Positions 19,933 to 63,943 are shown, counted from the first letter of the stretch. The stretch: 64,000 bases of DNA from an uncultured Bacteroidales bacterium (GCA_963698535.1 CAVORD010000002.1:10900-74899), one strand, 5' to 3'. Notes: generated by a model from the sequence alone, not told the origin. Translations and numbers: made by a program.

Positions 19933-20736
19933 TTATTTAGTTTTCACCTCTTCCTTTTCGATATCCTTACGCTTAAGTGTATCGTATACTATTGGAGCAG
20001 CAACATATATTGATGAATATGTACCCACTACAATACCGATCATAAGAGCAAAGGTAAATCCTCTGATAACCTCACCTCCCCAGATAAATATAGCCAGCAA
20101 TACAACGAATGTAGTAGCAGCTGTATTTATTGTACGGGTAAGTGTACTGTTGATAGCAAGGTTTATGATCTCCTTGCGGCTCCTTTTGCGGTAAATACCA
20201 ATGAATTCCCTTATTCTGTCGTATACAACAACCGTGTCATTAATTGAGTATCCCACAATAGTAAGGATAGCTGCAATGAATGCCTGATCTATCTCCATTG
20301 AGAACGGGAAGAACCCATAACCGATCGAGAATATACCCAGTATAAAGAGTACGTCGTGCATAAGTGAGGCGACGGCTCCAAGACCGAATTGCCAGACTCT
20401 GAACCTTAATACTATATAAAGGAAGATAATAAGTAGCGACAGTGATATCGCCCAAACTGCCTTGATCTTAATGTCATCAGCAATGGTTGGTCCTACTGTT
20501 TCGGAGCTAACTCTGAAATCAGAAAGGAAAACCTCTTTATCTACATCGCCAACAAGTGGTTTGAGGCCTTCATAGAGAAGAGTTTCAACTTCATCATCCA
20601 TTCCTGCCTCTTCGATCTTATACTTGGTTGTTATTTTAACCTGATTATCATTACCGAAAGTAACAACCTGGGGTGCACTTCCATATGATGTTGCAAGCAG
20701 AGATCGCAACCTCAGTGGTGGATACAGGCTGTTCAA
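19933..20736 (-). CDS. secDF: SecDF, C-terminal (SecF) fragment
   Basis: ...RSLLATSYGSAPQVVTFGNDNQVKITTKYKIEE... plus 5-6 TM helices typical of SecF. It overlaps the upstream fragment by 86 nt in another frame. Confidence 0.85.
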   Translation of the reverse strand: MNSLYPPLRLRSLLATSYGSAPQVVTFGNDNQVKITTKYKIEEAGMDDEVETLLYEGLKPLVGDVDKEVFLSDFRVSSETVGPTIADDIKIKAVWAISLSLLIIFLYIVLRFRVWQFGLGAVASLMHDVLFILGIFSIGYGFFPFSMEIDQAFIAAILTIVGYSINDTVVVYDRIREFIGIYRKRSRKEIINLAINSTLTRTINTAATTFVVLLAIFIWGGEVIRGFTFALMIGIVVGTYSSIYVAAPIVYDTLKRKDIEKEEVKTK

Positions 20737-29083: not shown

Positions 29084-29149
29084 TTGGATTGTATTGAATA
29101 ATGCAAAGTTGCGAAAAAAGCACGAATTCGCTAAATCCTTAAATAATTG

Positions 29150-29157
29150 TACCTTTG
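29150..29157 (+). promoter_or_regulatory. Bacteroidota-type -7 promoter box (TAnnTTTG) upstream of the rluB-like gene
   Basis: TACCTTTG, 19 nt upstream of the ATG at 29176. Confidence 0.45.
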
Positions 29158-29175
29158 CAGCCGAATTTGCTGAAT

Positions 29176-30270
29176 ATGAAAGAGAACAGATCTGGCGGAA
29201 GCCGCAACAAGAAGAATTCTTCCACGCGGGTAACCAAAGGAAGCAGGAATGAAAGGCCTGCAAGACCATTTAAGAAAGATAATAGTGAACAGGGCGGACA
29301 ACGGTCAAGGATAAGCCGGGGTGCTGACAGTGATAAAGGATCGGCACCGAGAGAAAGAGGTGCAGCAGGAAGCAGAAGCAGGGATGATAAACCGGAAAGA
29401 AAGAAGCCTTTCCCCAGGGAGCAATCGACAGGTGGCAGGACTGCCCGGCCGCGCAAGCTTGATGAGCATCCCTCACCGCGTCCACCACGAAAAAGTGTTT
29501 ATTCAAAAAAGAAGGAGCTCGAGGAGACCGCCAAGAGAGGCCTTCGAAAGGGCGACAACATAAGACTAAACCGATTTATCTCCAATTCCGGTATCTGTTC
29601 GCGCCGCGAGGCAGATCAGCTTATTGTTAACGGTGACATAACTGTTAACGAGAAGGTGGTCACCGACCTTGGAGTGAAGATCACTGTTGGTGATGTAATA
29701 AAATATAAAGGAAAGAGAATAACTCCTGAGAAACCGATTTATATTCTTTTAAACAAGCCTCGTGGCTATGTAACGACGGTTGAGGATCCTCATGCCGACA
29801 GGACGGTAATGGAGCTCATTGAAGGAGCATGTAAGGAACGTGTTTATCCTGTTGGAAGGCTTGACAAGATGACCACAGGAATACTTCTCTTTACAAATGA
29901 CGGTGAGCTGGCAGGAAGGTTGACACACCCCCGGTATAACAAGAAGAAGATCTACCATGTCTTCCTTGATTCACCACTGATAAAGAATGATTTCACTAAG
30001 CTGGTTGAAGGGATAGACCTTGGCGACGAGGTAGTTTCAGTTGACGCCGTAAGCTATGTTGACACTGAAGATAAGTCACAGGTGGGTGTTGAGTTACACA
30101 CCGGACAAAACAGGATCGTCCGTAACCTTTTCGAGGCTCTTGGTTATAAGGTGCTAAAGCTCGACCGTGTATATTTTGCAGGGCTCACAAAAAAGAATCT
30201 GCCCAGAGGGAAATACAGGATTCTTACCCCTATTGAGATAAATATGCTAAGAAGAGGATTATATAAATAG
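29176..30270 (+). CDS. Pseudouridine synthase, RsuA/RluB family, with a ~130-aa basic low-complexity N-terminal extension
   Basis: S4 domain IRLNRFISNSGICSRREADQLI. Catalytic GRLDKMTTGILLFTNDG. The ORF-track start at 29155 is TTG, so I used the ATG at 29176. Confidence 0.8.
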   Translation: MKENRSGGSRNKKNSSTRVTKGSRNERPARPFKKDNSEQGGQRSRISRGADSDKGSAPRERGAAGSRSRDDKPERKKPFPREQSTGGRTARPRKLDEHPSPRPPRKSVYSKKKELEETAKRGLRKGDNIRLNRFISNSGICSRREADQLIVNGDITVNEKVVTDLGVKITVGDVIKYKGKRITPEKPIYILLNKPRGYVTTVEDPHADRTVMELIEGACKERVYPVGRLDKMTTGILLFTNDGELAGRLTHPRYNKKKIYHVFLDSPLIKNDFTKLVEGIDLGDEVVSVDAVSYVDTEDKSQVGVELHTGQNRIVRNLFEALGYKVLKLDRVYFAGLTKKNLPRGKYRILTPIEINMLRRGLYK

Positions 30271-36202: not shown

Positions 36203-37198
36203 CTATTTCTTATCTATCTTTTTTACGCCGATCTTTCCCTGATAAACAGGGACCCCGCCAATAGGTATGGTAAAGAAAGGCAGATTTTCGCCGTACTGAT
36301 TTTCAACACTTATCACAACATTATTATTTCTTACAAGTCCCGGTTTATATTTATGGAACTGAATATCCAGGGAGTGGTTAATCTCGCCATCCAGAATTGG
36401 AAGGCTACTATCTGTCCATACATCCTCACCCGATATTTTAGCTTCAGACCCTTTTCTTACGGAGGATACGACAAGTATTGTCCCATCATTATCCCAGTCG
36501 AAATTTCTTTGTTTTACAGATATTGTACCCGTATCGATAAATGGATATATATGAGCCACTGAAGCTGTATTGTTCCACATTCTGAATGAATATTCATATG
36601 TAAAAGCGTTGCCTCCCTCTATTTCCTTGTTGCTATCGGGGTCTCTGCTAAGGAAATAGCGGTAGAGGTTACCATCATCTCCACTGATACCGTCGCAAAT
36701 GATCTTAAAAATATAACCGTCGAATTTCTGTATAAACTCTCCCTCTATAGGGTTGAATGGTCCAAAAGTGTACCAGGCGCCATCATATCTGGATTCATTG
36801 CCAAAAACCCTTGAGGCCATTAAAGTCCCGCTTTTATAGTTTCCTCGGGGGTCCATGCCTTTAGCATCGGGATCTGAGAAAGACCCTTTGCCTCCATAAA
36901 TGGAATATGACATTCTGGTATTCCATACACCATTGATCTCATCCTCTTTACCTCCCACATCAGGGTCATAAACCCTTATATAAAAAGGCTCCTTATAGGT
37001 GGATGGTATCTTGAAGAAGAATGTTTGTGAGAAGTCGTCATCACCCCATGAAGTTACACCCTCCTTCCCGAAAGTCATCAGGAATTCAATGTTTTCATCC
37101 TTAGCCGGAACAGCCTGCCCATAAAGGGAAGGTGCGATCAGGCTCATCATGATCACAATGACTATAAAGAGTTTATATTGAGTTTTCTTGATTCTCAT
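36203..37198 (-). CDS. Secreted hypothetical protein (operon member, no recognised family)
   Basis: The ATG at 37198 gives the signal peptide MRIKKTQYKLFIVIVIMMSLIAPSLYGQ. The composition is beta-rich. It sits 16 nt after the upstream stop and 23 nt before the phosphatase gene. Confidence 0.6.
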   Translation of the reverse strand: MRIKKTQYKLFIVIVIMMSLIAPSLYGQAVPAKDENIEFLMTFGKEGVTSWGDDDFSQTFFFKIPSTYKEPFYIRVYDPDVGGKEDEINGVWNTRMSYSIYGGKGSFSDPDAKGMDPRGNYKSGTLMASRVFGNESRYDGAWYTFGPFNPIEGEFIQKFDGYIFKIICDGISGDDGNLYRYFLSRDPDSNKEIEGGNAFTYEYSFRMWNNTASVAHIYPFIDTGTISVKQRNFDWDNDGTILVVSSVRKGSEAKISGEDVWTDSSLPILDGEINHSLDIQFHKYKPGLVRNNNVVISVENQYGENLPFFTIPIGGVPVYQGKIGVKKIDKK

Positions 37199-37214
37199 CT
37201 TATTATAAAAATAG

Positions 37215-38654
37215 TTATTTACCCTGATCAGGGCCGACAATTACAATTTTTTTACTAACACATGCCTCCCTGACAGCTCCGTTTTCATCGGGAGCACCAG
37301 AAACAATAAGTTGAACATTATAGTTTCCGGGTATGGCAAAGCTTTTCTCTGTAGTTGCTCCTGTTGATGATGTCCCGTCGTCAAAGTTCCAGTAGTATCT
37401 TGTTATATTCCAGCCCGGCAGGTTGGTAGGCGATGAATCGAAAGTGACCTGATCACCGGCTTTGGCACTTTCAGCAGCAGTAAATACTGCCTGTTCTGTC
37501 TTTCTTATTTCGAGAAAATATGTCACCTCGTTATACTTAACTTCCCCTGTAATGAGGTTCACAGCATTTAGCTTTACAAGGTAATCCCCGGGGTTTTCAA
37601 AACAGTGCTCGGCAGTGATACCACGGGCCTTTTTACCATCGCCAAAGTCCCACTCATAAAGAAACGGCGTTGAATCAAGCTTAACAGCATTTTCCTCAAC
37701 GAACTCATAGCAATATGAATCGACAACAGCCTCAGAACAGTTAAGCTTTCTGATAACCGTTGATGAAAATCTGTAGATATCGTCATTACGTCGCCTGTTA
37801 CTGGTGAAATAGCCAGACTGTCCGTCCTTTTCAATAGCAACGGCAAAATCGTCCGATGGAGAATTTATTGGCTCCGGCATTGGCGAAGGTTTCATCCATG
37901 AGCCATATTGAAGAAGAGTAAAGTAGACATCGAGGCCTCCTTTGCCACCTTGCCTGTCGGATGAAAAATAGAGGCGCCCTGAGCTGTGAAAAAAAGGATA
38001 TAGCTCCGATGAGGGAGTATTGACCAGCGGTCCGGCATTTACCGGTTTCCCCCATCCATTGGCTGTACGCTCACAATAGTAAATATCGGCTCCACCCTGT
38101 CCTCCCGGCATATCACTTGAAAAGAAGAGGTATTTACCGTCGGTGCTTATTGAGGGATGTGCCACATGATAGTCGGTAGTGTTATACTCAAAGGGTTTAA
38201 TATCTGTCCATTTACCGCCTGATTTAATGGCAGTGAAGATGCCCAGTTTATTCTGGGTTTTCTTCTTTTTTGCTTGCTTTCCTGTAACAATATCCCGAGT
38301 AAAATATACTTTATTGCCATCGGGACTGAAACAAAGCGGGCCCTCTGAGAGAGGTGTTGTAAGATCGTCGGACCAGATTCCGGGCTTTCGCCATTTTGTT
38401 GAATCTCTCTTTTCAGCAAAGTAAACATCCCAAACCCTAAGTCCGTCGAAAGTATTATAGTCCGATACGACCTTACTCTTGCGGTTGGAGCAGAAAATTA
38501 TTCCGTCACCGGTAATTACCGGAGCTATATCGTCAAACAGTGATGAACTTACAGGAAGAATTACAACCTCAAACATAGGTGGTTCCTGTCCGCTGGCAAA
38601 CTCAACCCCGAACAATGAAAATATTAACAATAATAACAGTGCTTTCCCCTTCAT
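37215..38654 (-). CDS. PD40 (TolB-like WD40 beta-propeller) repeat + 2x PKD domain secreted protein
   Basis: Repeats of the type ...S.P.....G..LYF.SDR.GG.GG.D.Y. PKD motifs YEWDFGDGKKARG...GDYLVKLNAVN and YYWNFDDGTSSTG...GNYNVQLIV. The ATG at 38654 gives the signal peptide MKGKALLLLLIFSLFG. Confidence 0.75.
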   Translation of the reverse strand: MKGKALLLLLIFSLFGVEFASGQEPPMFEVVILPVSSSLFDDIAPVITGDGIIFCSNRKSKVVSDYNTFDGLRVWDVYFAEKRDSTKWRKPGIWSDDLTTPLSEGPLCFSPDGNKVYFTRDIVTGKQAKKKKTQNKLGIFTAIKSGGKWTDIKPFEYNTTDYHVAHPSISTDGKYLFFSSDMPGGQGGADIYYCERTANGWGKPVNAGPLVNTPSSELYPFFHSSGRLYFSSDRQGGKGGLDVYFTLLQYGSWMKPSPMPEPINSPSDDFAVAIEKDGQSGYFTSNRRRNDDIYRFSSTVIRKLNCSEAVVDSYCYEFVEENAVKLDSTPFLYEWDFGDGKKARGITAEHCFENPGDYLVKLNAVNLITGEVKYNEVTYFLEIRKTEQAVFTAAESAKAGDQVTFDSSPTNLPGWNITRYYWNFDDGTSSTGATTEKSFAIPGNYNVQLIVSGAPDENGAVREACVSKKIVIVGPDQGK

Positions 38655-38655
38655 T

Positions 38656-39579
38656 TTAAAAGTATCTTGGATTAGAAGCACTCACCCTGTTTGTAAATTC
38701 AAACCTCATCACAATTTCATGTGAACCGGATGAGAACTTAGATAATCCCCCCATTTGATAGTCGTAAGCGTATCCTATTTTAAGTTTCTGACCCAGTTGA
38801 AGTTCGAGTATCCCTACCAGTGCCTCCTCACCTATTCTCCATGAGCCCCCCAGCCATACCACATCGCCAAATATAAAGTTAGCGTTAAGATCGGCACCAT
38901 AGGTATTATTCATATACAATTTAAGCAAAGCTGAAGGCTTGAATTTAAATGCCTCACTAAATGTAATAAGCCCACCACCAAATACAAGGATATCATAATT
39001 CTGGACAGAGTTATAGACTTCATATCCCGATCCTGAGGATGCCTCCCTGTAGCTCAGGAAAGCTGGAATTGATGCTCCCAGGAACGCATTATCGGAGTAG
39101 TAATAGATACCAGCCCCTACATTAGGCAGCGTATAAGAGGAAGCCCCGTCTGTAAAAACAGGATCAGGAGTAATGGTGTATACACTTGCAAGGTTGTTGT
39201 TACTCATATCGACACCTGCTTTCAGACCAAAAGATATTTTGCCCTTGTTACCTGCTCTAATTCTATAAGCATAGTGACCATAAATACCTGTTGTTTTGGT
39301 TACACCATAGGTAAGATACTGACCCATAAGTCCGATAGCGACGCGGTCGCTTTTTAAGGGTGCATGAACAGAAAAACTCTGAAAAAGCGGGCTTCCTTCG
39401 AGACCGGCCCATTGCTGACGGTAGTAGAATGTTGAACTGAGGGCACCTCTTGAGCCTGCATAGGCCGGGTTGATAATAATACCATCCATCAAATATTGGC
39501 TATAAACCGGATAGACCTGAGCAGAGGTGTCAGTTAAAAAGGCGGAAAATAAAAGAAGGATAATATACCTGAATCTCAT
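38656..39579 (-). CDS. Type IX secretion system membrane protein, PorP/SprF family
   Basis: Signal peptide, then the family signature ...YSQY....IINPAYAG.......F.YR.QW.G.EG.P...F..H.PL. Predicted beta-barrel of about 300 aa. It lies directly downstream of a type-B CTD cargo gene with a 4-nt overlap. Confidence 0.85.
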   Translation of the reverse strand: MRFRYIILLLFSAFLTDTSAQVYPVYSQYLMDGIIINPAYAGSRGALSSTFYYRQQWAGLEGSPLFQSFSVHAPLKSDRVAIGLMGQYLTYGVTKTTGIYGHYAYRIRAGNKGKISFGLKAGVDMSNNNLASVYTITPDPVFTDGASSYTLPNVGAGIYYYSDNAFLGASIPAFLSYREASSGSGYEVYNSVQNYDILVFGGGLITFSEAFKFKPSALLKLYMNNTYGADLNANFIFGDVVWLGGSWRIGEEALVGILELQLGQKLKIGYAYDYQMGGLSKFSSGSHEIVMRFEFTNRVSASNPRYF

Positions 39580-42332
39580 CTTCCTGACCGTTTTATTATT
39601 ATGTATCCGCTGTATTTGTCAACTGCCGGCTTTGTAATCGTTAAGAGGTAATAGTAGGTGCCTTCCGGCAGGTCTGCGCCATTCTTGTCCTTGCCATCCC
39701 AGAATCCTGTTGTGGCACTGTAGTTCTTTTTACGAAATACCTCAACACCTTTAATATTTATTATCACCAATTCATTTTCGGTACCATCGTGGATGCCTAT
39801 TTCAAAAGTATCGTTTATACCATCATTACCAGGTGAGAATCCTCCCGGAATAACCAGTCCCGGCACTTCAACAATGACTCTGTCGGTTGCTGCCGGGCAG
39901 ACACCGTTTATTACGCTCCACTCCAGTTCATTTTGTCCGAACCACAGATCTGATACAGTTGTGGCAGGAAGAACATCGTTGCCAAACAGTGGGGTTCCTT
40001 TACTTGAGACGATGCTCCACTTGGTTGCTGTTGAGCGCACAGGCGTTACGGCGTTAAGGGTTGTATTGAACTCAAAAGGCATTAGAAACTGATCAGGGCC
40101 TGCGTCGGCCGGATCGGGTTGCTGCCAGAAGGTAACATCCACAGATGCTGAATCCTTGCACTGCCAGTTGGTCTCTTTCCACCAGAAGCGCCAGATTCCA
40201 TAACCAGAAACTGTAACAGTATGTGAAGCTGAAGTAATGGCATTGGCAGCAGCTGTAACGGGGGTTGTTTTGTAATCCCACGTCCCTACGCCGATGCTGG
40301 GAACGGCATTAAGGGTGTACGTTAGTCCGCAGGCCTCTCCATTCGTACCGGCATTTGAGTTAGGATATTTGAAGACCGTAACCTGATGTGATCCTGCTTT
40401 TGATGTTGCAAGACAGCCGTTAATATTATCCTTGATGCTTGTAAGTGTGTATGTTGAACTATTAACCGGCTTCCTCGTTATAGATGAGACTGCAGATGTA
40501 ATGGCAGAGAATGTTGAGTCAACTGATCCGTTTGACAGTACAACATCCCAGTTTCCGGACCCTGTTAAGGTCAGTCCTACTGTTACAGGTGTCCCTTCGC
40601 ATGAGTTTTGCACAACATCAGCGATAAGGCCGGTAGGAAGTGTAAGAGTATCAACTATCAGTCCGGCAGAAATGTTTGTACATTCATTCGTGGGGCCGGA
40701 TTTTACGATCCTCCTGTAGTAAATAATATCTGTTATTGCAGGGGGATCAAAACTTCCTCCGGCTACGGGAGTACCTGTTGCCGCTACCCATGCAATATTA
40801 TTGGGGCTCTGTTCCCATGTATAGGCATATGTCCCCGATCCACCTGTGGGTGTAAGGCCGTTTATTCGGGCCGGGACAGTACCATAGCATACTTCCGGTA
40901 CAGGTGGCAGGGTATTATTGGCAATTGCCCCGAATATATTAAGAGTTACTGAAGTACTTGTGTCGGCACACTGGTTCTGAAGGCCTGAAAATACCACACG
41001 CCTGAAATATCTGTTACCCAAAGCCTTAAGAGCCACCTCATCGGGATTGTAGGTTGCTGTGTTTATAGTTCCTGTGGGTACCAGAGGAGCTGTAGCAAAG
41101 TTATCGGCACTTATCTCCCACTTAAAGTTATAGGATCCGTCGCCGCCGGTGAGTGCCGGTCCTGACTGAACCAGATCGGTAAAGTTTGTTCCCTCGCAGA
41201 TCGACTGATCTGTTTGTATGTTATTATTCAAGATCAGTGGAAGAACAGTTATTTTCAACGAGGGAGATGCACTTGTGCATACATCTGAGTTTACAACACG
41301 GCGATACCACTTGTCAGAGCTAAGAGCCGGCGGATCAAAGTTGGACAAAGTAATTGTTCCAACGGGGACCTGGGGTGCAGTAGAGAAATTGTCGTTGCTA
41401 ACCTGCCATATGTAGGTATAGGTACCATTACCTCCTGCGGGGCCTGCATTTGCCGAATACAAAGGATCAGGGTTCTGGTTGAAACAGATCGTTGTATCGC
41501 CGTCAATAAGGTTGCCTGTGATCTGTCCGAAGAGCTCCAGCACAACCGAAGAGCTGGTGCTTTGGCAAGTGTTATTTAATCCTGAGTATACTATTCTTCT
41601 AAAATACTTCTTGCCTGCGGCAACCAGAAGTGCTTCGTCGGGGTTGTAAGCGGCACCTGTTATCACTCCTGTGGCATCACCAAAAGCAATATTGTCCGTG
41701 CTCTGTTCCCATTTGTAAAGATAGGAGGAGTTACCACCGGTAAGTAACGTTCCTGAATGAGCCAGGTCGGTAAAGAGAGATCCTTCGCAAAGAGTCTGGT
41801 CGGAGGCAACATTATTATTTGCGATCAGCGGCAGTACTGTTATTTTAACGGCATTAGAGGTATTGGTACATACGCTAGAATTCACGACCCTGCGATACCA
41901 GGTGTCTGTTGTCAGTGCAGCCGGATCGTATTTGCTCCCGGTTATAGTTCCGCCGGGGACCTGAGGGGCTGTACCAAAGTTATCTGTGCTCTGTTGCCAG
42001 GTATAAGTATATGTTCCTGAGCCACCTCCCGGTAATGGCACCAATGGATACAGGGCATTGGGGTCCTGTGAGAAACAAATGGTGGTATCTGTTCCAATGT
42101 TATTGTTTACAATTATGGGAAGGACAGTAAACTTTATCTCCTTGCTTATGTCGGTAATGGCCCCTGACTGATACCACTCTTCTGAAGAAGGCATTACCTG
42201 CGACGACTTCCGCGGGAGGTGTTGGATAATTCTTGCTTGTAGCAGCACCCACAGGTGTCCATGCCCCGGCACCGAATTTTCTTTCCCACTGATATGTATA
42301 TGCTCCTGTTCCTCCGAGTGGGCTTGTACCAT
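39576..42332 (-). CDS. Large repeat adhesin with a T9SS type-B (gliding-motility-associated) C-terminal sorting domain; the intact 3' 2.76 kb of a ~4.2-kb gene
   Basis: C-terminus VIPGGFSPGNDGINDTFEI......L.I.N..G..VF......WDGKDKNG..LP.GTYYY. Upstream are at least 5 Ig-like modules of about 100 aa. The first ~60 codons of this ORF are read-through in the wrong frame. Confidence 0.8.
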   Translation of the reverse strand: MVQAHSEEQEHIHISGKENSVPGHGHLWVLLQARIIQHLPRKSSQVMPSSEEWYQSGAITDISKEIKFTVLPIIVNNNIGTDTTICFSQDPNALYPLVPLPGGGSGTYTYTWQQSTDNFGTAPQVPGGTITGSKYDPAALTTDTWYRRVVNSSVCTNTSNAVKITVLPLIANNNVASDQTLCEGSLFTDLAHSGTLLTGGNSSYLYKWEQSTDNIAFGDATGVITGAAYNPDEALLVAAGKKYFRRIVYSGLNNTCQSTSSSVVLELFGQITGNLIDGDTTICFNQNPDPLYSANAGPAGGNGTYTYIWQVSNDNFSTAPQVPVGTITLSNFDPPALSSDKWYRRVVNSDVCTSASPSLKITVLPLILNNNIQTDQSICEGTNFTDLVQSGPALTGGDGSYNFKWEISADNFATAPLVPTGTINTATYNPDEVALKALGNRYFRRVVFSGLQNQCADTSTSVTLNIFGAIANNTLPPVPEVCYGTVPARINGLTPTGGSGTYAYTWEQSPNNIAWVAATGTPVAGGSFDPPAITDIIYYRRIVKSGPTNECTNISAGLIVDTLTLPTGLIADVVQNSCEGTPVTVGLTLTGSGNWDVVLSNGSVDSTFSAITSAVSSITRKPVNSSTYTLTSIKDNINGCLATSKAGSHQVTVFKYPNSNAGTNGEACGLTYTLNAVPSIGVGTWDYKTTPVTAAANAITSASHTVTVSGYGIWRFWWKETNWQCKDSASVDVTFWQQPDPADAGPDQFLMPFEFNTTLNAVTPVRSTATKWSIVSSKGTPLFGNDVLPATTVSDLWFGQNELEWSVINGVCPAATDRVIVEVPGLVIPGGFSPGNDGINDTFEIGIHDGTENELVIINIKGVEVFRKKNYSATTGFWDGKDKNGADLPEGTYYYLLTITKPAVDKYSGYIIIKRSGR

Positions 42333-49414: not shown

Positions 49415-50370
49415 TGAAGATCGGTGGTCATGACGTGGAAAAACAAAAACGGAGCAAGCTAAGAAATCTGGTGCTTCCGGGATTCAGTGGCGTCCCTATA
49501 GTTGATGTTTTTACCTTCGTGGTGCGTGGTTTCGGAAGAGGGACGCTTGTAACTCGTGCCTCATCAATGGCCTTTAACATGCTGATGGCTGTCATCCCCA
49601 GCACCATATTCATTTTTACACTTATTCCATTTATTCCCATTGAGAATTTCCAAAGGGAGCTTGTTGTGCTCTTCGAGAGCGTTTTGCCGTCGAATGTCTA
49701 CTCGTTCCTTGAGAGTACGATCGTTGATGTGGTGACCAGGAGAAGCGGTACTCTTCTCATTTTCATGTTTCTGGCCACAGTTCTGTTTTCCACTAACGGT
49801 ATACATTCCCTTATCCACTCCTTTGTGGTGTCGGCCCATGATTTCAAAGCCAGATCGTGGATAGAGCAGCGTAAAATTTCAATTGTCCTTTTACTTATTC
49901 TCCATTCACTCATCTATCTGGCGGGAGGACTTATAATTTTCGGGAAGTTTTGTGTTGAGTCACTCGTTGATGCCGGACTAATTGAATCGGGACTTGTTTA
50001 CTATATCCTGATAATTTTCAAATGGCTCCTTTCAACCGTCCTGCTATTCATTGGAATATCGTTTCTATACTGGCTTGCCCCGGCCCGTCGATCTGAGTTC
50101 ACCTTTATCTCCGCCGGATCTACCCTTGCCACGCTTCTTTTCATCTCAACGTCGCTGGGTTTCAGTGCCTACGTCAACAATTTTGGTCAGTATAATAAGC
50201 TGTACGGATCGATAGGCACCCTTATGGTAATACTTATCTGGCTCTATCTTAATTCAATAGCCCTGCTTATTGGTTTCGAGATCAACCTCAGTATCAGGGC
50301 TGCCAACGGATCGCTGAAAGACGGACTACAGGATGTTAACCACAATGAAGATACTTCTTCACCAGGGTAG
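49414..50370 (+). CDS. YihY/BrkB-family membrane protein
   Basis: Six TM helices, with RASSMAFNMLMAVIPS...YG.IGTLMVILIWLYLNSIALLIGFEIN. The ATG overlaps the nadC stop (ATGA). Confidence 0.8.
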   Translation: MKIGGHDVEKQKRSKLRNLVLPGFSGVPIVDVFTFVVRGFGRGTLVTRASSMAFNMLMAVIPSTIFIFTLIPFIPIENFQRELVVLFESVLPSNVYSFLESTIVDVVTRRSGTLLIFMFLATVLFSTNGIHSLIHSFVVSAHDFKARSWIEQRKISIVLLLILHSLIYLAGGLIIFGKFCVESLVDAGLIESGLVYYILIIFKWLLSTVLLFIGISFLYWLAPARRSEFTFISAGSTLATLLFISTSLGFSAYVNNFGQYNKLYGSIGTLMVILIWLYLNSIALLIGFEINLSIRAANGSLKDGLQDVNHNEDTSSPG

Positions 50371-51841
50371 AGATCTCATCATTCTTACCGTATAATCTCT
50401 CGCTCAGGTTCTCATCCTGATAGCTTTTCAGTTTAGCTGCCACATTATCGATCACTCCAGCCGGGAATACTCCGTTCTTTTCGAAGAAGGCCCTTTTCCC
50501 TATCAAAGAATCGGCTGATTCCCAACAGCTTGCAGGAAGCTTCTCCAGCTCCGACTGTTTGCTCTTATTCTCCTCCTTGAAAATATTGACTTTAACATAT
50601 AGCCTGGCCGCAAGATCGAGTGCTCCGTCCATTTCCAGTCCGTGCTGTGTTGCAACAACCAGTCCAGCCATCAGCTTATAGAGATCGGCCGAGCCATCCG
50701 GTGACCGCAATTCTACTGTCTGTCGTGTCTGAAAATCGGGCACCTCAGAATCATCTACAGGGTTAGCATCCTTAATCATTTGCGAAGCGCCCACCCATCC
50801 GAGCGGAACCCTTACCAGAACCGACCTGTTCCTGTCGCCCCAGCAGATATTTGTCGGCGCCTCCTGGTGAGGCACAAGCCTGAGGTACGATGTGGGTATT
50901 GTATTTCCAAAAGCTGTCAATGGCCTGGCAAGATCGAGGATCCCTGCGATCATTCTTCTTGCGGTATCGCTTAGTATACCATTCTCAACCATAACGTTCT
51001 TACCATCTTTCTCAAGGAGCATATGAATATGCATCCCTGATCCTGCCTTCCCAACTGTTATTTTCGGTGCAAAACTTACCTCCACTCCATATTCATAACC
51101 GAGCATCCTGACGATCCATTTTGCAATAAGCATCTGATCGACCGCCTCATCAACTTCAACCGGGAGAAACTCTATTTCGTGCTGTTCATAATCCTCTTCC
51201 TCCTTGGTGAAGCTACCCACTTCAGAATGGCCATATTTAATCTTGCAACCTGCCTTGGCACAAAGGTCAAGCGCACTAACCCTTAAGTCTTCAAATTTTG
51301 CAAAAGGTTTCGACTGGTGGTAACCCCGTTGATCCAGCAGAGGATAGAGTTCGTCATGATATGATTTCACATAATACTCAAGCTCACCCAAAGCCTTCAT
51401 TTTCATGCCGGTAGCCTCTTTAAATTGAGTGTAGGCCTTTTTTAGTATATATTCAGGGGCACTTTCAAGGGGTTTACCTACGCTATTATAAAATGAACAA
51501 AGTATATCGAGAGTAGGTTCCACTGTAAATGGGTTCATAAAAGCAGTCCGGTATCTCGGAATCACATAAAGATCACTTGACCCTGCCTCAACGAATGAGA
51601 AGAGGCTGGAACCGTCGACACGCTCGCCGGCAGAAAGAATAGTCTCAAGATGGTCGCGGCTATGTGGAACAAAGTTCAATGATTTTAAACGGCCATCCTC
51701 GGCAACGTACCGGAAATTAACCATCTTAATGGCTCTTCCTTCTATAAACCTAAGAATATCGTTCCTTGTAAATTCCGATGCAGGCTTTTTCAGAAACTGA
51801 ACAAGCTCATTGGGATTTAACAGTACATCGTTGTTTTTCAT
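50336..51841 (-). CDS. glnA: Glutamine synthetase family protein (~500 aa)
   Basis: N-terminal beta-grasp region, then catalytic-domain motifs KAGSGMHIHM and ...N.CWGDRNRS.LVRVP. Its end overlaps the yihY-like gene end by 35 nt (convergent). Confidence 0.8.
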   Translation of the reverse strand: MKNNDVLLNPNELVQFLKKPASEFTRNDILRFIEGRAIKMVNFRYVAEDGRLKSLNFVPHSRDHLETILSAGERVDGSSLFSFVEAGSSDLYVIPRYRTAFMNPFTVEPTLDILCSFYNSVGKPLESAPEYILKKAYTQFKEATGMKMKALGELEYYVKSYHDELYPLLDQRGYHQSKPFAKFEDLRVSALDLCAKAGCKIKYGHSEVGSFTKEEEDYEQHEIEFLPVEVDEAVDQMLIAKWIVRMLGYEYGVEVSFAPKITVGKAGSGMHIHMLLEKDGKNVMVENGILSDTARRMIAGILDLARPLTAFGNTIPTSYLRLVPHQEAPTNICWGDRNRSVLVRVPLGWVGASQMIKDANPVDDSEVPDFQTRQTVELRSPDGSADLYKLMAGLVVATQHGLEMDGALDLAARLYVKVNIFKEENKSKQSELEKLPASCWESADSLIGKRAFFEKNGVFPAGVIDNVAAKLKSYQDENLSERLYGKNDEISTLVKKYLHCG

Positions 51842-59164: not shown

Positions 59165-60409
59165 ATGAATACACCCTTTTTCATAGCATCACGCCTCATT
59201 AAGGAGAGAAAGAGCGGGGCCACTTTTTCAAGGCCTATAAACACCATAGCAATTATTGGCATTGCACTTGGCCTGGCTGTTGGCATACTTGCTGTTTCCA
59301 TTCTTACCGGTTTCAAGACTGAGATAAGAAACAAGGTTGCAGGCTTTGGATCGCATATACAGGTTGTCAACTTCGACTCAAACATCTCTTATGAAACGGC
59401 TCCTATAAATATCGACCAGCCCTTTGTGGAGACCCTCAGGAGCAAAAGCGGGTTTGAACACATTCAGGTATTTGCAACAAAAGCAGGTATTATAAAGACC
59501 GAAGACAATATTCAGGGTATTGTTCTGAAAGGAATAGGTACCGATTACGATTGGTCGTTCTTCTCTTCCAACATGGTTGAGGGATCTACCTTTCATGTAA
59601 CAGATTCAGCCAGAACAGACGAGGTAATAATCTCTAACAAAGTGGCGTCGTTGCTAAAGCTGAAGGTGGGAGATGACTTTGCAGTCTACTTTGTTCAGGA
59701 TCCTCCACGGCAGAGAAAATTTACCATATCCGGTATATACGAAACCAGTCTCGAGGAATTCGACAAGATATATGTCTTCTGCGATATAGGTCATATAAGA
59801 AGGTTAAACGGATGGAGCGAAAATCAGGCCAGCGGACTGGAGATTTTTGTTGACAACTTCGATCTGCTCGATTTCTATACCTGGGAAGTAAGGGATGCAA
59901 TTGGCTATAAGCTGGCAGAAGATGAAGATAAACTAAAAGTGACCAATATAAGGATCAGATATCCCCAGATTTTCGACTGGCTTAATTTTCAGGATGTAAA
60001 CGTAATAGTGATCATGATCCTTCTTCTTATTGTTGCCGGATTTAATATGATCTCAGGGCTTCTGATCCTGATCCTTGAAAAGACCAATCTTATTGGTATT
60101 CTGAAAGCACTGGGCTCTGAAGATAAAATGGTAAGGAAGATATTCATTTATCAGGCAGCCTATCTCGTTGCCAAAGGATTAGTTTGGGGAAACCTCGTTG
60201 GAATAGGACTTGCTTTAATTCAGCAACTAACAGGCTTTATTACTCTCGATCCTGCATCTTACTATCTCAAGACAGTTCCTGTAAACATCGAGATTATTCA
60301 TCTCTTTTACCTCAACGCAGGCACCATGCTGGCAATAGTTCTTATGTTGCTTATTCCATCCCGGATAATCTCCTCAATTTCACCGGTGAAGGCGATTCGT
60401 TTCGAATAA
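59165..60409 (+). CDS. Lipoprotein-releasing system (LolC/LolE-like) FtsX-family ABC permease
   Basis: FIASRLIKERKSG.FSRPINTIAIIGIALGLAV, a MacB-like periplasmic domain, and a C-terminal FtsX bundle with ...KALG......RKIF. Confidence 0.8.
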   Translation: MNTPFFIASRLIKERKSGATFSRPINTIAIIGIALGLAVGILAVSILTGFKTEIRNKVAGFGSHIQVVNFDSNISYETAPINIDQPFVETLRSKSGFEHIQVFATKAGIIKTEDNIQGIVLKGIGTDYDWSFFSSNMVEGSTFHVTDSARTDEVIISNKVASLLKLKVGDDFAVYFVQDPPRQRKFTISGIYETSLEEFDKIYVFCDIGHIRRLNGWSENQASGLEIFVDNFDLLDFYTWEVRDAIGYKLAEDEDKLKVTNIRIRYPQIFDWLNFQDVNVIVIMILLLIVAGFNMISGLLILILEKTNLIGILKALGSEDKMVRKIFIYQAAYLVAKGLVWGNLVGIGLALIQQLTGFITLDPASYYLKTVPVNIEIIHLFYLNAGTMLAIVLMLLIPSRIISSISPVKAIRFE

Positions 60410-60574
60410 CCTTATTGCCTTTAAATTCTTAAGCAATTGATTGCTTCACTGTCGGAATCATTAAGCTATTCCGGCAATCTGATTGACGCCCTTAATCCGC
60501 CGCAACATTCTGATAATCTGCTATTTCATATTTGATTTTTGTTACCTACCTTGGTTCCACTTTCAGTATCATTT

Positions 60575-62368
60575 ATGAAGAATTTCAACCCACAGGAAAA
60601 TTACCAGGCCACCAGAAAGGATATTGGCTATGTAAGCCGTAAGGAGGCAACGGAAAAGGATTATAAACGGATAGGCTTTAAGTCAGGACTCGAAGTCCAT
60701 CAGCAGCTGAACACTGTCAGCAAACTCTTTTGCCGTTGCCCTGCAGGTATCTACAACGACAGCAATGACTACGATGCTGAGATAATCAGACATATGAGGC
60801 CCACATTAAGCGAGCTGGGAGTCTATGACGGAACAGCCTTAATGGAGTTTAAAACAAAAAAAGAGATAACATACCGCATTAAGAATGAAACAGCCTGCAC
60901 CTATGAGGTAGATGATACCCCTCCTTTCCCAATTGACAGGCAGGCTCTGGACATAGCATTGGAGATTTCACTTCTATCTAAAATGAATATTGTAGGAGAG
61001 GTTCATATTACCCGCAAGCAATACCTTGACGGAAGTATACCAACCGGATTCCAAAGAACAGCTATTCTTGGTGTTGAGGGAAGCCTGCAGCTTTCCAACA
61101 AGAAGGTAAGACTTATTCAGCTTAGCATAGAGGAGGATTCATGCAGGGAGATATCAGATATAGGACACAAGAGAGTTTACAAGACCGACAGATTGGGTAT
61201 GCCTCTGATAGAAACAGTAACATACCCCGATATGGCTACTCCATCGGAGCTTATGGAGGCAGCCGAGTACATAAGGTTTCTCAACAGGAGCACCGGGAAG
61301 GTACGTACCGGAATCGGAGCAGGAAGAGAGGATGTTAATGTAAGCTGTGAAGGGGGCAGTCGGGTTGAAATAAAAGGAGTCGCTCATAACAGTTGGATCC
61401 CGGAACTTTCGCATAACGAATCTTTCAGACAATATGCACTGCTAAATATCCGGAAGTTACTGCTTAAAAGGATTAAGGAGCCTGAAAAATGGAAGATCGG
61501 TCATGTAGAAATAAAAGCTGCGAAAAACAGTTTCGAATCTGATTTTATCAGCGAAGCACTTAATAAGGGACACAAGGTTTTTGCCGTAAACCTCCCTGGT
61601 TGCAAAGGGATATTATCTCATTTTACTCAGCCGGGACATGCATTTGCCGATGAGCTGATACACAGATTGAAGGTAATTGCATGTATCGAATATCCCAACA
61701 TGGTCTATGCCGAGAATCCGTTTAATCCAATGGACAGAGAGGAACAGGAGGCTCTTTCTCATCTTCTTAAGGCATCTGAAGACGATTCACCAATAATTAT
61801 CTGCGGCCCGGAAGATGATATACCAACAGCTCTTGAGACCATTGAGGAGAGAATAAAGATGGCTTTCGAGGGAGTCCCGGAGGAGACAAGAAAATCATTT
61901 TCCGATGGCACGACCATCTTCGAACGAGTCCTGCCCGGGCGCGACAGGATGTACCCCGATACCGACTCTCCTCCTATTCCTCTGCCTAATGACCATATTG
62001 AAAGACTTAGGAAATCAATACCGGCAGATGTGGCAGATAGAATTGCTCAGCTGGTAAGCTGGGAGATACCCCCTGATACATGGAGGTTTTTGTTAAGCCG
62101 AAATATGATTCCTCTTATTGAGAAAATTTCAGTTGATTTTAAGATCGATCCTGGATTTCTGGGTAAATTCCTTGGTCATCGATTCAGGAATCTGTGCTGG
62201 AAGAACGGAATGTCAATTGGCCAGGAGAAAATTTATGCCCTTTTCCGGTTTATGATAACCAGAAACCTGAATTTGTCAATTGCTGAAAAGATGCTTAAAG
62301 TACTTATCGAACATCCTGAAATTGAATTTGAAAGCATTCTTGTAGTTTTAAAATTCAAAGAGAACTGA
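60575..62368 (+). CDS. gatE: Archaeal-type Glu-tRNA(Gln) amidotransferase subunit E (GatE)-like protein; the C-terminal tail is in another frame
   Basis: DYKRIGFKSGLEVHQQLNT.SKLFCRCP. MRPTLSELGVYDGTALMEF. EVDDTPPFP. GFQRT. DRLGMPLIETVTYPD. EIKGV. An inserted domain of about 150 aa. GVPEETRKSF.DGTT.FERVLPGRDRMYPDTDSPPIPL. The ORF-track start at 60539 is TTG, so I used the ATG at 60575. Confidence 0.85.
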   Translation: MKNFNPQENYQATRKDIGYVSRKEATEKDYKRIGFKSGLEVHQQLNTVSKLFCRCPAGIYNDSNDYDAEIIRHMRPTLSELGVYDGTALMEFKTKKEITYRIKNETACTYEVDDTPPFPIDRQALDIALEISLLSKMNIVGEVHITRKQYLDGSIPTGFQRTAILGVEGSLQLSNKKVRLIQLSIEEDSCREISDIGHKRVYKTDRLGMPLIETVTYPDMATPSELMEAAEYIRFLNRSTGKVRTGIGAGREDVNVSCEGGSRVEIKGVAHNSWIPELSHNESFRQYALLNIRKLLLKRIKEPEKWKIGHVEIKAAKNSFESDFISEALNKGHKVFAVNLPGCKGILSHFTQPGHAFADELIHRLKVIACIEYPNMVYAENPFNPMDREEQEALSHLLKASEDDSPIIICGPEDDIPTALETIEERIKMAFEGVPEETRKSFSDGTTIFERVLPGRDRMYPDTDSPPIPLPNDHIERLRKSIPADVADRIAQLVSWEIPPDTWRFLLSRNMIPLIEKISVDFKIDPGFLGKFLGHRFRNLCWKNGMSIGQEKIYALFRFMITRNLNLSIAEKMLKVLIEHPEIEFESILVVLKFKEN

Positions 62369-62415
62369 CAAAAAAGCGATCCTTTCTGACTTCACATTTC
62401 GTCTATAAACGATTT

Positions 62416-62556
62416 ATGAAAGAGAGGATTTCAAAGGATCGCGATGCAAACATAAACTGGCTAATGGGACAGTATTCGGACCGGTCGACCGGAAATATTG
62501 ATCTGGCGGATCTCCGGACCGAAATTGAAAAACTGTACGATCTAAATAAAAACTAA
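62416..62556 (+). CDS. Out-of-frame remnant of the GatE C-terminal (GatB/YqeY-like) tail
   Basis: Hand translation: MKERISKDRDANINWLMGQYSDRSTGNIDLADLRTEIEKLYDLNKN*. NWLMGQ......G resembles the LMG.VM...RGKA tail motif. The frame is open back past the gatE stop. Its stop lies 1 nt before the gatD ATG. Confidence 0.4.
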   Translation: MKERISKDRDANINWLMGQYSDRSTGNIDLADLRTEIEKLYDLNKN

Positions 62557-62557
62557 G

Positions 62558-63943
62558 ATGGCTGACGATATATTTCAGGGTTATAAAGGAGAAGCGCTGG
62601 AGGTTCTTAAACGATTCAATGCACGCGTTTGGGGAAGAGCCGAGATAGAAACCACCAGAGGTCTCTTTCAGGGGACCATTTTACCACGCTCAGAGAATGA
62701 CGATAGCAGACACATTGTTATTAAAATCGATACCGGCTACAATATAGGAATAGAGGTTTCGACGATTACCTCATTGATCGAGACAGGTTATAAAAAAGCC
62801 AATTACAAGATCCCGGAAAAGGAGTTTCCCTACTCCGCCGAAAAGCCCAATGTGAAGCTTTTCGGAACAGGAGGAACGATAGCGTCCAGGCTTGACTATC
62901 GGACAGGAGCAGTAATACCTGCCTTCTCTCCCGGAGAGCTGTATGGCGCAGTGCCTGAACTGGCTGATGTTTGCAATATCAACACCGAAAAGCTCTTTGC
63001 TGTATTCAGCGAAAATATGGGGCCCGATCAATACAAAACACTTGCCCGGGCAATAGGCAAAGAGATAGAAAATGGTATTGACGGTATTATGATAGGTCAT
63101 GGAACCGACACACTTCACCATACCGCTGCAGCCCTCTCATTTATGGTTCAGGATTCACCGGTACCTATAATTCTTGTCGGCTCCCAGAGATCATCCGACC
63201 GGCCCTCATCCGATGCAGCACTAAATCTTATTCACGCATCAACAGCCGCCGGTCATGGTGATATTGCCGAGGTGATGGTTTGTATGTTCGGTCCTACCTC
63301 TGATGACTACGGTTTCCTCCACAGGGGAACAAGAGTAAGAAAGATGCACAGCTCCTACCGGTCAACATTCAGGACTATTGGCGACACACCTGTGGCAACC
63401 GTTAACAAAAATGGCCTTACCCATATTAAGCATGACTACAAGCCTCGCCGTAAAGACCGGAATGTAAAAATATTGCCCTACTTCTCCGAGAAGGTCTCTA
63501 TGCTCTACTACTACCCTCACATGCAGGCAGAGGTAATGCACAGCATGATTGATATGGGTTACAAAGGCATAATAATTGTCGGAACAGGACTGGGACATGT
63601 TAACAGAGAGCTTTACCCTGCACTTGAAAGAGCACAAAAGGAGGGCGTATCTGTCTATATGACTCTCCAGACCATATGGGGCTATGTTCATATGTTTGTT
63701 TACGAGACAGGACGTGATATGATGTCCAAGGGGGTAATTCCCCTTGGTAATATGCTTCCTGAAGTTGCATGGGTAAAATTAGGCTGGGCTCTTGGACAGA
63801 CAGATGATCCTGAAGAGGTTAAAAAGATCATGCTTACACCTGTAAATCATGAGATTACCCCAAGAGAACCTTATAACGGCTACCTGGTTTACCAGGGAGG
63901 AGTTCCTGAAGTGGAGGAGTTTATCAGGAAGGTAAGGAAGTAG
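62558..63943 (+). CDS. gatD: Archaeal-type Glu-tRNA(Gln) amidotransferase subunit D (GatD)-like protein (asparaginase-fold glutaminase)
   Basis: DSRHIVIKIDTGYNIGIE. FGTGGTIASRLDYRTGAVIPAF. GHGTDTLHHTAAALSF. GSQRSSDRPSSDA. IAEVMVCM. HRGTRVRKMHSS.RSTF. VGTGLGH. MLPEVAWVKLGWALGQTDDPEEV. Confidence 0.9.
   Translation: MADDIFQGYKGEALEVLKRFNARVWGRAEIETTRGLFQGTILPRSENDDSRHIVIKIDTGYNIGIEVSTITSLIETGYKKANYKIPEKEFPYSAEKPNVKLFGTGGTIASRLDYRTGAVIPAFSPGELYGAVPELADVCNINTEKLFAVFSENMGPDQYKTLARAIGKEIENGIDGIMIGHGTDTLHHTAAALSFMVQDSPVPIILVGSQRSSDRPSSDAALNLIHASTAAGHGDIAEVMVCMFGPTSDDYGFLHRGTRVRKMHSSYRSTFRTIGDTPVATVNKNGLTHIKHDYKPRRKDRNVKILPYFSEKVSMLYYYPHMQAEVMHSMIDMGYKGIIIVGTGLGHVNRELYPALERAQKEGVSVYMTLQTIWGYVHMFVYETGRDMMSKGVIPLGNMLPEVAWVKLGWALGQTDDPEEVKKIMLTPVNHEITPREPYNGYLVYQGGVPEVEEFIRKVRK

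Follow-up and report, generated by a model that had tools for sequence, protein, structure and literature searches.

A gatE-gatD operon, probably chromosomal and vertically inherited, in a Bacteroidales bacterium and its place in a large bacterial GatDE clade

GatCAB is the usual bacterial solution for Gln-tRNA(Gln). GatDE has been described in reviews up to 2022 as occurring only in archaea, and this distribution has been used to argue for its co-evolution with archaeal tRNA(Gln). In this study, we asked how an adjacent gatE-gatD pair came to lie in a 64,000-nt stretch of DNA (the window) from an uncultured Bacteroidales bacterium, and what the pair might do there. Our analysis indicates that it is probably a chromosomal, vertically inherited Bacteroidales operon, and that it falls within a large bacterial clade of this tRNA-dependent amidotransferase.

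The two genes were found in the order gatE, gatD at 60575-63943, in agreement with the positions given in the initial annotation. The features of the locus are as follows:

59165..60409, + strand, lolC/E-like lipoprotein-release ABC permease gene (167.7 bits on TIGR02212, under the equivalog cut-off and hence a family-level assignment only)
60410..60574, + strand, 165-nt intergenic spacer between the lolC/E-like gene and gatE
60575..62368, + strand, gatE main frame, 597 codons followed by TGA; GatB/E cradle with an insertion, then a helical domain
62363..62366, + strand, first 1-nt insertion in gatE, AACT (4 nt) versus GCA (3 nt) in contig L052, from DNA alignment
62367..62399, + strand, second-frame segment of gatE, 11 codons (DKKAILSDFTF); the three-frame translation matches the intact 659-aa protein P0121
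62397..62400, + strand, second 1-nt insertion in gatE, TTT versus TT in L052, from DNA alignment
62401..62556, + strand, C-terminal tail of gatE in the third frame, 51 codons and TAA; end of the putative YqeY-like tail domain
62558..63943, + strand, gatD, 461 aa; GatD N-terminal domain and asparaginase-type glutaminase

Translation of gatE starts at the ATG at 60575, with an MKxF start motif that is common to close homologues. As previously reported, the pair lies 165 nt downstream of the LolC/E permease gene, the permease-like ORF ending at 60409, and the spacer at 60410..60574 is presumably the site of a putative promoter. The stop codon of the tail frame (TAA, 62554-62556) indeed precedes the gatD ATG (62558) by 1 nt. 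The tight coupling of the two genes that had been proposed was also supported: in approximately 40 of the 51 species genomes gatD directly follows gatE, with an ORF overlap of 4 nt in 10 of them.

First, we examined the family assignment of both proteins. All of the motifs that had been quoted for GatE (GLEVHQQL, RPT.SELG and GVPEETRK) and GatD (DSRHIV.K.D.GYNIG, GGTIAS, GHGTDT, RSSDRPSSDA and HRG..VRKMHSS) were found in the translations. When the recommended gatE_arch and gatD_arch profile check was run, GatE and GatD both passed the NCBIfam curated cut-offs, at scores far above chance level, with GatB and asparaginase models scoring far lower. On NF003107, whose cut-off is 456, the truncated GatE ORF reached 459.5 bits, and on TIGR00134 it reached 398.3 bits with a cut-off of 319.6; the equivalog match covered profile positions 3-561 of 630 only. 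The best GatB model gave 103.5 bits (cut-off 338; GatB model cut-offs are at least 315). GatD scored 496.1 bits with NF003217, where the cut-off is 310, and 493.5 bits with TIGR02153, where it is 324; the asparaginase model gave 368 bits. Archaeal GatDE structures were the best sequence matches of GatE (299 bits), and GatD gave 381 bits with 1zq1_A and 375 bits with 2d6f_A, the asparaginases reaching at most 139 bits. In a fold search, the predicted GatE model, which is of moderate quality (pLDDT 75) and whose tail lies outside the fold match, had 1zq1_C and 2d6f as its best matches (E 2e-33, target-normalised TM 0.65-0.71), with TM values of 0.5-0.6 for GatB. Profile scores, structure sequence matches and the fold search thus agree that the genes encode GatE and GatD, and not GatB or a plain asparaginase.

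The domain architecture of the two proteins was also analyzed. GatD contains GatD_N (PF18195), Asparaginase (PF00710) and Asparaginase_C (PF17763) domains. In GatE, Pfam GatB_N positions 3-276 are spread over residues 37-475, the cradle being split at the expected place by an insertion of ~165 aa, a candidate AspRS/GAD-like domain that was modelled as a confident alpha/beta domain. The Pfam GAD profile was undetected in the Bacteroidota protein; it gave 15-22 bits in other bacterial GatE proteins and 42 bits in one archaeal GatE. A helical C-terminal region of the length expected for the GatE tail that binds the tRNA D-loop is present in P0121, the intact GatE relative, in which residues 546-648 matched Pfam GatB_Yqey weakly (16 bits, E 0.009, versus 88 bits in one archaeal GatE).

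The predicted catalytic residues of GatD are the nucleophile T107 and the triad T183-D184-K262, inside the motifs GTGGTIAS, HGTDT and VRKMH, and all four are invariant in 40 GatD sequences, one of them archaeal. Their roles are predicted from asparaginase homology, with reference to the residue numbering of E. coli AnsB. These roles were also drawn from PMC2330236. For GatE, whose kinase and transamidase activities require an Mg2+-binding His/Glu/Glu set, residues H42, E186 and E213 align with His15, Glu157 and Glu184 of Methanothermobacter thermautotrophicus GatE, which are Mg-site residues (PMC2330236). None of the three residues of the present protein varies among 38 Bacteroidota-type GatE sequences, nor do their equivalents in 30 other bacterial sequences.

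Among known systems, archaeal GatDE is the best sequence and fold match of the pair. Its structures (2D6F, M. thermautotrophicus with tRNA(Gln), and 1ZQ1, Pyrococcus abyssi) contain the same two subunits. The domain order agrees in GatD (GatD_N and asparaginase) and appears to agree in GatE (cradle with a candidate AspRS-like insertion, helical region and putative tail), and the catalytic residues of the Mg site and of the Thr / Thr-Asp-Lys set are shared. GatDE forms a physical alpha2-beta2 complex in archaea, and the pairing here is known from gene adjacency. On the other hand, the host of the present pair is a bacterium, the partner tRNA has to be of bacterial type, and several differences from the archaeal proteins were observed. 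Overall identity is ~35-45% for GatE and ~48-55% for GatD (upper end estimated from alignments), and in GatE it falls from 41% in the catalytic domain to just 14-22% in the tRNA-binding insertion, helical and tail domains (tail, 14%). In addition, the present GatE has an N-terminal extension of ~28 aa and GatD a conserved C-terminal extension of ~20 aa, and gatD in the sampled bacterial genomes mostly follows gatE directly, often with overlapping ORFs. The GatB subunit of bacterial GatCAB is paralogous to GatE and shares its cradle fold and its kinase/amidotransferase chemistry, whereas it lacks the ~165-aa insertion domain and is partnered by the amidase-type GatA and by GatC, the partner of GatE being the asparaginase-type GatD. 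The core of GatD shares fold and catalytic residues with type I L-asparaginase, but GatD carries the additional GatD_N domain and is operonic with gatE.

As assembled, gatE is not a single ORF. A TGA at 62366-62368 follows 597 codons, and the remaining ~62 codons are split between two further frames; the initial annotation had hinted at this split only through its wording "tail frame". Two 1-nt insertions, 34 nt apart, account for the shifts, and the first of them creates the TGA at codon 598. A programmed -1 frameshift at the T_TTA_AAA heptamer (near 62343-62349) was considered and rejected, since the shifts map elsewhere as two separate single-base insertions and every other homologue is a single ORF.

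These insertions and the premature stop, together with the fact that the first insertion lies in a small patch with several substitutions rather than in a long homopolymer, would be expected if gatE here were a genuine recent pseudogene or encoded a tail-less GatE, with the pair decaying in this organism and functional in its relatives. We consider such decay unlikely. The gene is intact (659 aa) in the relative P0121/L052, and at the peptide level the displaced tail does not differ from the C-terminus of P0121: in the part of gatE that follows the shifts, six synonymous and no non-synonymous codon differences from L052 were counted. For gatE as such, constraint is indicated by 54 synonymous versus 24 non-synonymous codon differences from this 96%-identical relative. 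The stop codon of the tail and the 1-nt gap to gatD are kept as well, and gatD is intact. Moreover, a frameshift also interrupts the important housekeeping gene secDF inside the same 64 kb, which suggests an indel-prone assembly. Because the relative is intact, the tail changes are only synonymous and secDF is also frameshifted, the breaks in gatE are probably assembly errors; the two 3' frameshifts are most likely consensus errors, or at most a very recent lesion. Judging from the sequence comparison, gatE in the organism itself is probably an intact 659-codon ORF that is translationally coupled to gatD.

Second, the function of the pair was considered. By analogy with the archaeal enzyme, the most likely predicted function is the amidation of Glu-tRNA(Gln) to Gln-tRNA(Gln), fitted to a bacterial tRNA. 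In the archaeal scheme, GatD would act as an asparaginase-type glutaminase and free ammonia from Gln or Asn, GatE would phosphorylate the glutamate of Glu-tRNA(Gln) with ATP and Mg2+, and ammonia would pass via an internal tunnel to GatE and react with the intermediate to yield Gln-tRNA(Gln). In GatE, the modules that bind the tRNA (insertion, helical and tail) would have been remodelled, presumably to suit bacterial tRNA(Gln). The conserved catalytic residues favour the same chemistry as in archaeal GatDE. With regard to the tRNA, archaeal GatDE reads the A1-U72 pair of tRNA(Gln), whereas Staphylococcus aureus GatCAB recognises U1-A72 of bacterial tRNA(Gln); therefore, recognition by a bacterial GatDE would need to differ.

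Given that the tRNA-binding domains are strongly diverged, a different substrate has to be weighed as well: the kinase/amidotransferase chemistry might have been kept and recruited to Asp-tRNA(Asn), to both Asp-tRNA(Asn) and Glu-tRNA(Gln) as in GatCAB, or to some other carboxylate. Divergence is greatest in the domains responsible for tRNA selection, the Bacteroidota tail sharing 13% identity even with the tails of other bacterial GatE proteins, and matches to the GAD and YqeY profiles are weak or lacking. Archaeal GatDE owes its specificity to the A1-U72 pair and to features of the D-loop in tRNA(Gln) of archaea, and the gene neighbourhood contains no conserved gltX or tRNA gene that would link the pair to tRNA(Gln): neither gltX nor glnS was found as a conserved gatED neighbour in related loci, and tRNA(Gln) genes were absent near gatED in the window and in the 51 loci. 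The recurrent neighbours were only lolCE, DUF1343, an aminotransferase and valS, within one Bacteroidales subgroup. However, the insertion and tail domains are kept in length and predicted secondary structure, and the insertion, helical and tail domains are fast-evolving within archaea as well (25-37% identity). The equivalog-level scores and the invariant catalytic residues suit an unchanged reaction, and a clash between AspRS and the insertion domain of GatE is suggested by modelling that PMC2330236 cites. On balance, recruitment to another substrate seems unlikely to us, and amidation of Glu-tRNA(Gln) is the function that we tentatively prefer. No gatA, gatB or gatC was identified in the window or the compared loci, and no GatB-like ORF occurred in 813 kb of locus sequence.

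Third, we analyzed the genomic context and the distribution of the pair. The flanking genes (lolCE, bacterial-type valS, mutS, secDF, era/der and type IX secretion genes) are those of a Bacteroidota-like bacterial chromosome, as the initial annotation had recognised. Its impression by eye that composition is uniform was also correct, with a GC content of 0.433 in gatE and 0.462 in gatD versus 0.447 +/- 0.020 in the 36 other genes of the window, and with codon usage and GC3 of gatE/gatD within the range of the window. A survey of relatives for the same pair and neighbours, which had been proposed, showed that 22 of the 51 related genomes have a lolCE homologue upstream of gatE; the lolCE-gatE-gatD order was present in 22 other Bacteroidales assemblies, with extended synteny in 15 genomes. 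The gatE-gatD arrangement was also present on contigs L052, L053, L054, L056 and L058. Constraint on GatD is indicated by its identity of 73-87% across Bacteroidales species, with a ValRS median of 69% at the same syntenic loci. A misjoin of archaeal DNA to a bacterial contig, or a very recent archaeal transfer, has nothing in its favour except the textbook expectation that GatDE is archaeal and is extremely improbable, because the lolCE-gatE-gatD order recurs in these 22 independent genomes, the independent contig L052 is 96% identical across the junctions, composition is typical of the window, and the closest archaeal GatE is ~35-40% identical versus up to 70% for bacterial relatives; chimerism and contamination are thereby rejected, within the limits of sequence data.

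Bacterial GatDE homologues number in the thousands and occur in Bacteroidota, Ignavibacteria, Calditrichia, KSB1, Latescibacteria, Krumholzibacteria, Marinimicrobia and Aminicenantes. Restriction of GatDE to Archaea does not hold: besides the window, at least 55 contigs that bear bacterial marker genes carry the pair, homologues named as GatDE by NCBI are found in at least 10 bacterial lineages, and bacterial GatE genes from other phyla sit on contigs with unmistakably bacterial neighbours. For the intermediate sequence clusters, most of which have no taxon name, we relied on gene neighbourhood and on a profile search. Such occurrence corrects the stated distribution of the family and is no argument against membership of the present proteins in it. 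In a GatB-rooted neighbour-joining tree, bacterial GatE was monophyletic and apart from archaeal GatE in 160 of 200 bootstraps (80%). Monophyly of archaeal GatE was recovered in 23 of 200 bootstraps, so that the tree does not tell bacterial sequences nested within archaea from a sister group. The view of the pair as old and fully ameliorated is supported by synteny in 22 genomes, flat composition and a monophyletic bacterial clade. By its sequence, the pair is a member of a large, old bacterial GatDE branch. In contrast with what the initial annotation had implied, it is not an isolated odd case, since this multi-phylum clade is very large and has already been named by NCBI and JGI pipelines. 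We found no report of bacterial GatDE in the published literature, although databases do annotate members.

For genome annotation, these results imply that the present gatE-gatD pair should not be dismissed as contamination, and that the split gatE of this assembly should not be taken for a programmed frameshift or a novel short protein. More generally, a broad and old bacterial GatDE clade contradicts the archaea-only distribution given in reviews, and its hosts offer a test bed for the substrate rules of the enzyme, including the first base pair, the D-loop and the partnership with GluRS. If the host bacteria lack GlnRS or GatCAB, GatDE would represent a third option for bacterial Gln-tRNA(Gln) synthesis. 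It is conceivable, and we propose it only tentatively, that GatDE is ancient and vertically inherited in the Bacteroidota-Ignavibacteria-Calditrichia-KSB1-Latescibacteria group and in some other bacteria, that in many of them it is the main or only route to Gln-tRNA(Gln), with GatCAB or GlnRS replaced or never needed for glutamine, and that its tRNA-binding domains have been re-fitted to bacterial tRNA(Gln). If true, this would provide a natural experiment with which to ask why archaea hold two amidotransferases and whether, as proposed, GatDE and archaeal tRNA(Gln) have co-evolved, and it would raise anew the question whether GatDE is older than the divergence of archaea and bacteria.

Both genes of the gatE-gatD pair lie on the forward strand of the window:

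60575-62368, + strand: gatE main ORF, 597 codons
62558-63943, + strand: gatD, 461 aa

The GatE ORF passed two NCBIfam equivalogs, NF003107 (459.5 bits; cut-off 456) and TIGR00134 (398.3 bits; cut-off 319.6), and reached only 103.5 bits with the best GatB model (cut-off 338). GatD also passed two equivalogs (496.1 and 493.5 bits; cut-offs 310 and 324, respectively) and contained the Pfam domains GatD_N, Asparaginase and Asparaginase_C. In the gatE product, the Pfam GatB/E catalytic domain occupied residues 37-475, and since profile positions 3-276 were spread across ~440 residues, it appears to contain an insertion of ~165 aa; archaeal GatE likewise carries an insertion in its catalytic domain. 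All motifs on which the initial annotation had based its GatE and GatD assignments were found in the translations, and the profile scores agreed with these assignments. Its 165-nt spacer downstream of the lolCE-like gene was right, as was the 1-nt gap between the stop of the tail frame (the displaced 3' end of gatE) and the gatD ATG. By sequence, the pair qualifies as GatE and GatD.

The truncated GatE ORF reached only profile position 561 of 630. An intact relative of 659 aa (P0121), which shares a 90% cluster with the window GatE, sits on an independent 3-kb contig (L052). This contig was 96.3% identical to the window across 3071 nt. The alignment has exactly two gaps, and each is an extra base in the window:

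62363-62366, + strand: first extra base (AACT in the window vs GCA in L052)
62397-62400, + strand: second extra base, in a T-run (alignment to L052)

The gatE frame path leads from the main frame through 62367-62399 (DKKAILSDFTF) to 62401-62556. After the shifts, the displaced tail differed from L052 by six synonymous and no non-synonymous codons, and its stop and spacing to gatD were kept as in L052. Another gene of the window is likewise frameshifted:

19933-22918, - strand: secDF, split into two overlapping ORFs (fused SecDF model, 993 positions)

Its ORFs 20651-22918 and 19933-20736 corresponded to profile positions 1-725 and 724-988, respectively, with the break near 20650-20740, which suggests an indel-prone assembly. 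Thus, consensus indel errors are the most likely cause of the gatE breaks, because the tail changes were all synonymous, the stop and spacing were kept and secDF was also frameshifted. The same breaks may mark gatE in this genome as a very recent pseudogene. A programmed slip was ruled out, since the shifts are two separate insertions and no split gatE occurred among the ~170 homologues listed or in 50 further genomic copies.

Bacterial-type genes in the window included those for ValRS, MutS, SecDF, Era, Der and the lolCE-like permease. Type IX secretion components, which are typical of Bacteroidota, were also present:

36203-42332, - strand: type IX secretion gene cluster (PorP/SprF family, PorE-like and T9SS-sorted proteins)

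The PorE-like OmpA protein covered only profile positions 146-422 of 648 and was followed by a 345-aa ORF without assignment, and a 918-aa protein of the cluster carried the T9SS C-terminal sorting domain. When one genome per GTDB species was scanned, a close GatE turned up at 51 loci (59-67% identity for full-length matches), all of them in metagenome-assembled genomes (MAGs). The labels were mostly Bacteroidales, Rikenellaceae, Lentimicrobiaceae or Bacteroidota, with two Ignavibacteria and one Acidobacteriota. A lolCE homologue was located upstream of gatE in 22 of the 51 loci, 15 of which also had valS together with genes for an aminotransferase and a DUF1343 protein. In GC, GC3 and codon usage, both genes of the pair were within one standard deviation of the 36 other genes of the window, which bears out the earlier impression, gained by eye, of no compositional break. 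As far as can be judged from sequence, this is a bacterial host with a genuine gatDE join; chimera, contamination and recent transfer are excluded because synteny is shared across genomes and composition matches the window.

With regard to gene arrangement, gatD was directly 3' of gatE in ~40 of the 51 species loci (with a 4-nt overlap in 10 of these) and in five further contigs (L052, L053, L054, L056 and L058). The two genes are not always adjacent, since six loci from termite-gut, rumen and other Bacteroidales MAGs (L012, L023, L024, L027, L035 and L038) showed gatE without gatD inside the fetched flank. No tRNA(Gln), gltX, glnS or gatCAB genes were found near the pair in any locus examined. 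A glutamine-synthetase-like gene (50336-51841, - strand; 215.5 bits with the GlnA model, below the cut-off of 429) lies upstream of gatE at a distance of ~9 kb, and four related loci share this synteny; any connection with the glutamine supply of GatD is speculative. Elsewhere in the window, a phosphoglucosamine mutase gene (27701-29269, - strand) scored 501 bits with 'Arch_GlmM' TIGR03990 (cut-off 439) and only 199.5 bits with the bacterial glmM model, and is a second window gene whose best family bears an archaeal name.

The distribution of GatE was analyzed by two protein searches of a 5.8-billion-protein collection, each with at least 8000 scored candidates. The best 120 of at least 8000 matches to the window GatE were all ~650-670 aa long with 65-70% identity, except the window's own truncated entry, and many had been given the name GatE by NCBI or JGI in MAGs of Bacteroidales, Bacteroidia or Marinimicrobia. 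At E <= 1e-30, 588 clusters were retrieved when the 50%-identity representatives were searched exhaustively. A neighbour-joining tree of 134 full-length GatE sequences had two halves. The half to which the window GatE belongs (48 tips) included clusters 42-52% identical to the window protein and one, P0158, whose NCBI name is candidate division CSSED10-310 bacterium. Five contigs from this half had plainly bacterial gene surroundings: sigma-54 response regulators, RND efflux genes with an outer-membrane factor, HPr kinase and PTS genes, and genes for HU, ClpS, Kdo transferase, Mur ligase and SecA. In the other half, the nearest member adjoins archaeal ribosomal genes, including aS21. A profile of non-Bacteroidota bacterial GatE matched proteins named by NCBI as, among others, Calditrichia, KSB1, Latescibacteria, Krumholzibacteria, Aminicenantes and Desulfaltia. 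In a tree rooted with three GatB sequences (P0181 left out), the bacterial clade was monophyletic in 160 of 200 bootstraps, which supports one old origin for the bacterial GatDE pair; archaeal GatE was monophyletic in only 23 of 200. This origin may lie in a transfer out of an archaeal lineage or may be older still. Two unusual sequences were also observed. P0181, a GatE-like protein of 943 aa from the representatives search, exceeds the others by ~300 aa in length, perhaps as a result of a fusion. In Natrinema thermotolerans (L062; CP031304.1, 706665-707968), a GatE-like frame with no annotated feature under it lies on a 987-kb haloarchaeal replicon; only 481 aa could be extracted, and this may reflect a pseudogene or a gap in the annotation.

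Archaeal GatD is an asparaginase-type glutaminase that frees ammonia by means of a nucleophilic Thr and a Thr-Lys-Asp triad, whereas GatE phosphorylates Glu-tRNA(Gln) (Mg2+ site His15, Glu157 and Glu184) and amidates the intermediate with ammonia arriving via a 40-Å tunnel; the enzyme recognises the tRNA's A1-U72 pair and its D-loop (PMC2330236, PMC9499178). All of these catalytic residues have counterparts in the window proteins. GatE H42, E186 and E213 were invariant in 38 Bacteroidota-type sequences, and their equivalents in 30 other bacterial ones; GatD T107, T183, D184 and K262 were invariant in 40 sequences. The intact relative, as modelled by AlphaFold (pLDDT 75), best matched the GatE structures 1zq1_C and 2d6f (E 2e-33; target-normalised TM 0.65-0.71), with GatB structures second. 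Constraint on GatD is strong: its identity among Bacteroidales species was 73-87% compared with a ValRS median of 69% in the same syntenic loci. With invariant catalytic residues, a GatE fold and strong constraint, the chemistry is very probably the same as in archaea: GatD would release ammonia, and GatE would phosphorylate and then amidate Glu-tRNA(Gln), a substrate that we infer here only by analogy.

On average, GatE of the Bacteroidota clade shared with archaeal GatE an identity of 41% in the catalytic cradle, 22% in the insertion domain and 14-15% in the helical and tail domains, and the Bacteroidota tail was only 13% identical even to other bacterial tails. An archaeal GatE gave 42 bits with Pfam GAD and 88 bits with GatB_Yqey, vs 0-22 and 16-30 bits, respectively, for bacterial GatE. 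The diverged domains are exactly the tRNA-selecting modules. Some re-fitting of these modules would be expected, because bacterial tRNA(Gln) has U1-A72 (S. aureus GatCAB work as cited in PMC2330236). GatDE here may be the sole route to Gln-tRNA(Gln) or a parallel one. It may also be a re-purposed enzyme with a changed substrate, which the same low identities and weak profile scores in the tRNA-selecting modules would fit. In the same genome pairs (L001-L051), GatD was far more conserved than GatE (73-87% vs 59-67%). In contrast with the bacterial proteins, archaeal GatDE of known structure has neither the ~28-aa N-terminal extension of GatE nor the conserved ~20-aa C-terminal extension of GatD.

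Reviews from 2008 to 2022 repeat that GatDE is confined to archaea (including PMC2330236 and PMC9499178), and it is only in this point that the window pair departs from GatDE as described. A full-text literature search found no published account of bacterial GatDE. The names GatE and GatD are already given to thousands of these bacterial proteins by annotation pipelines; thus, bacterial GatDE is in the databases, even if without discussion in print. The break at the 3' end of gatE is most likely an ordinary assembly artefact, and the occurrence of GatDE in bacteria is a matter for specialists in tRNA aminoacylation.
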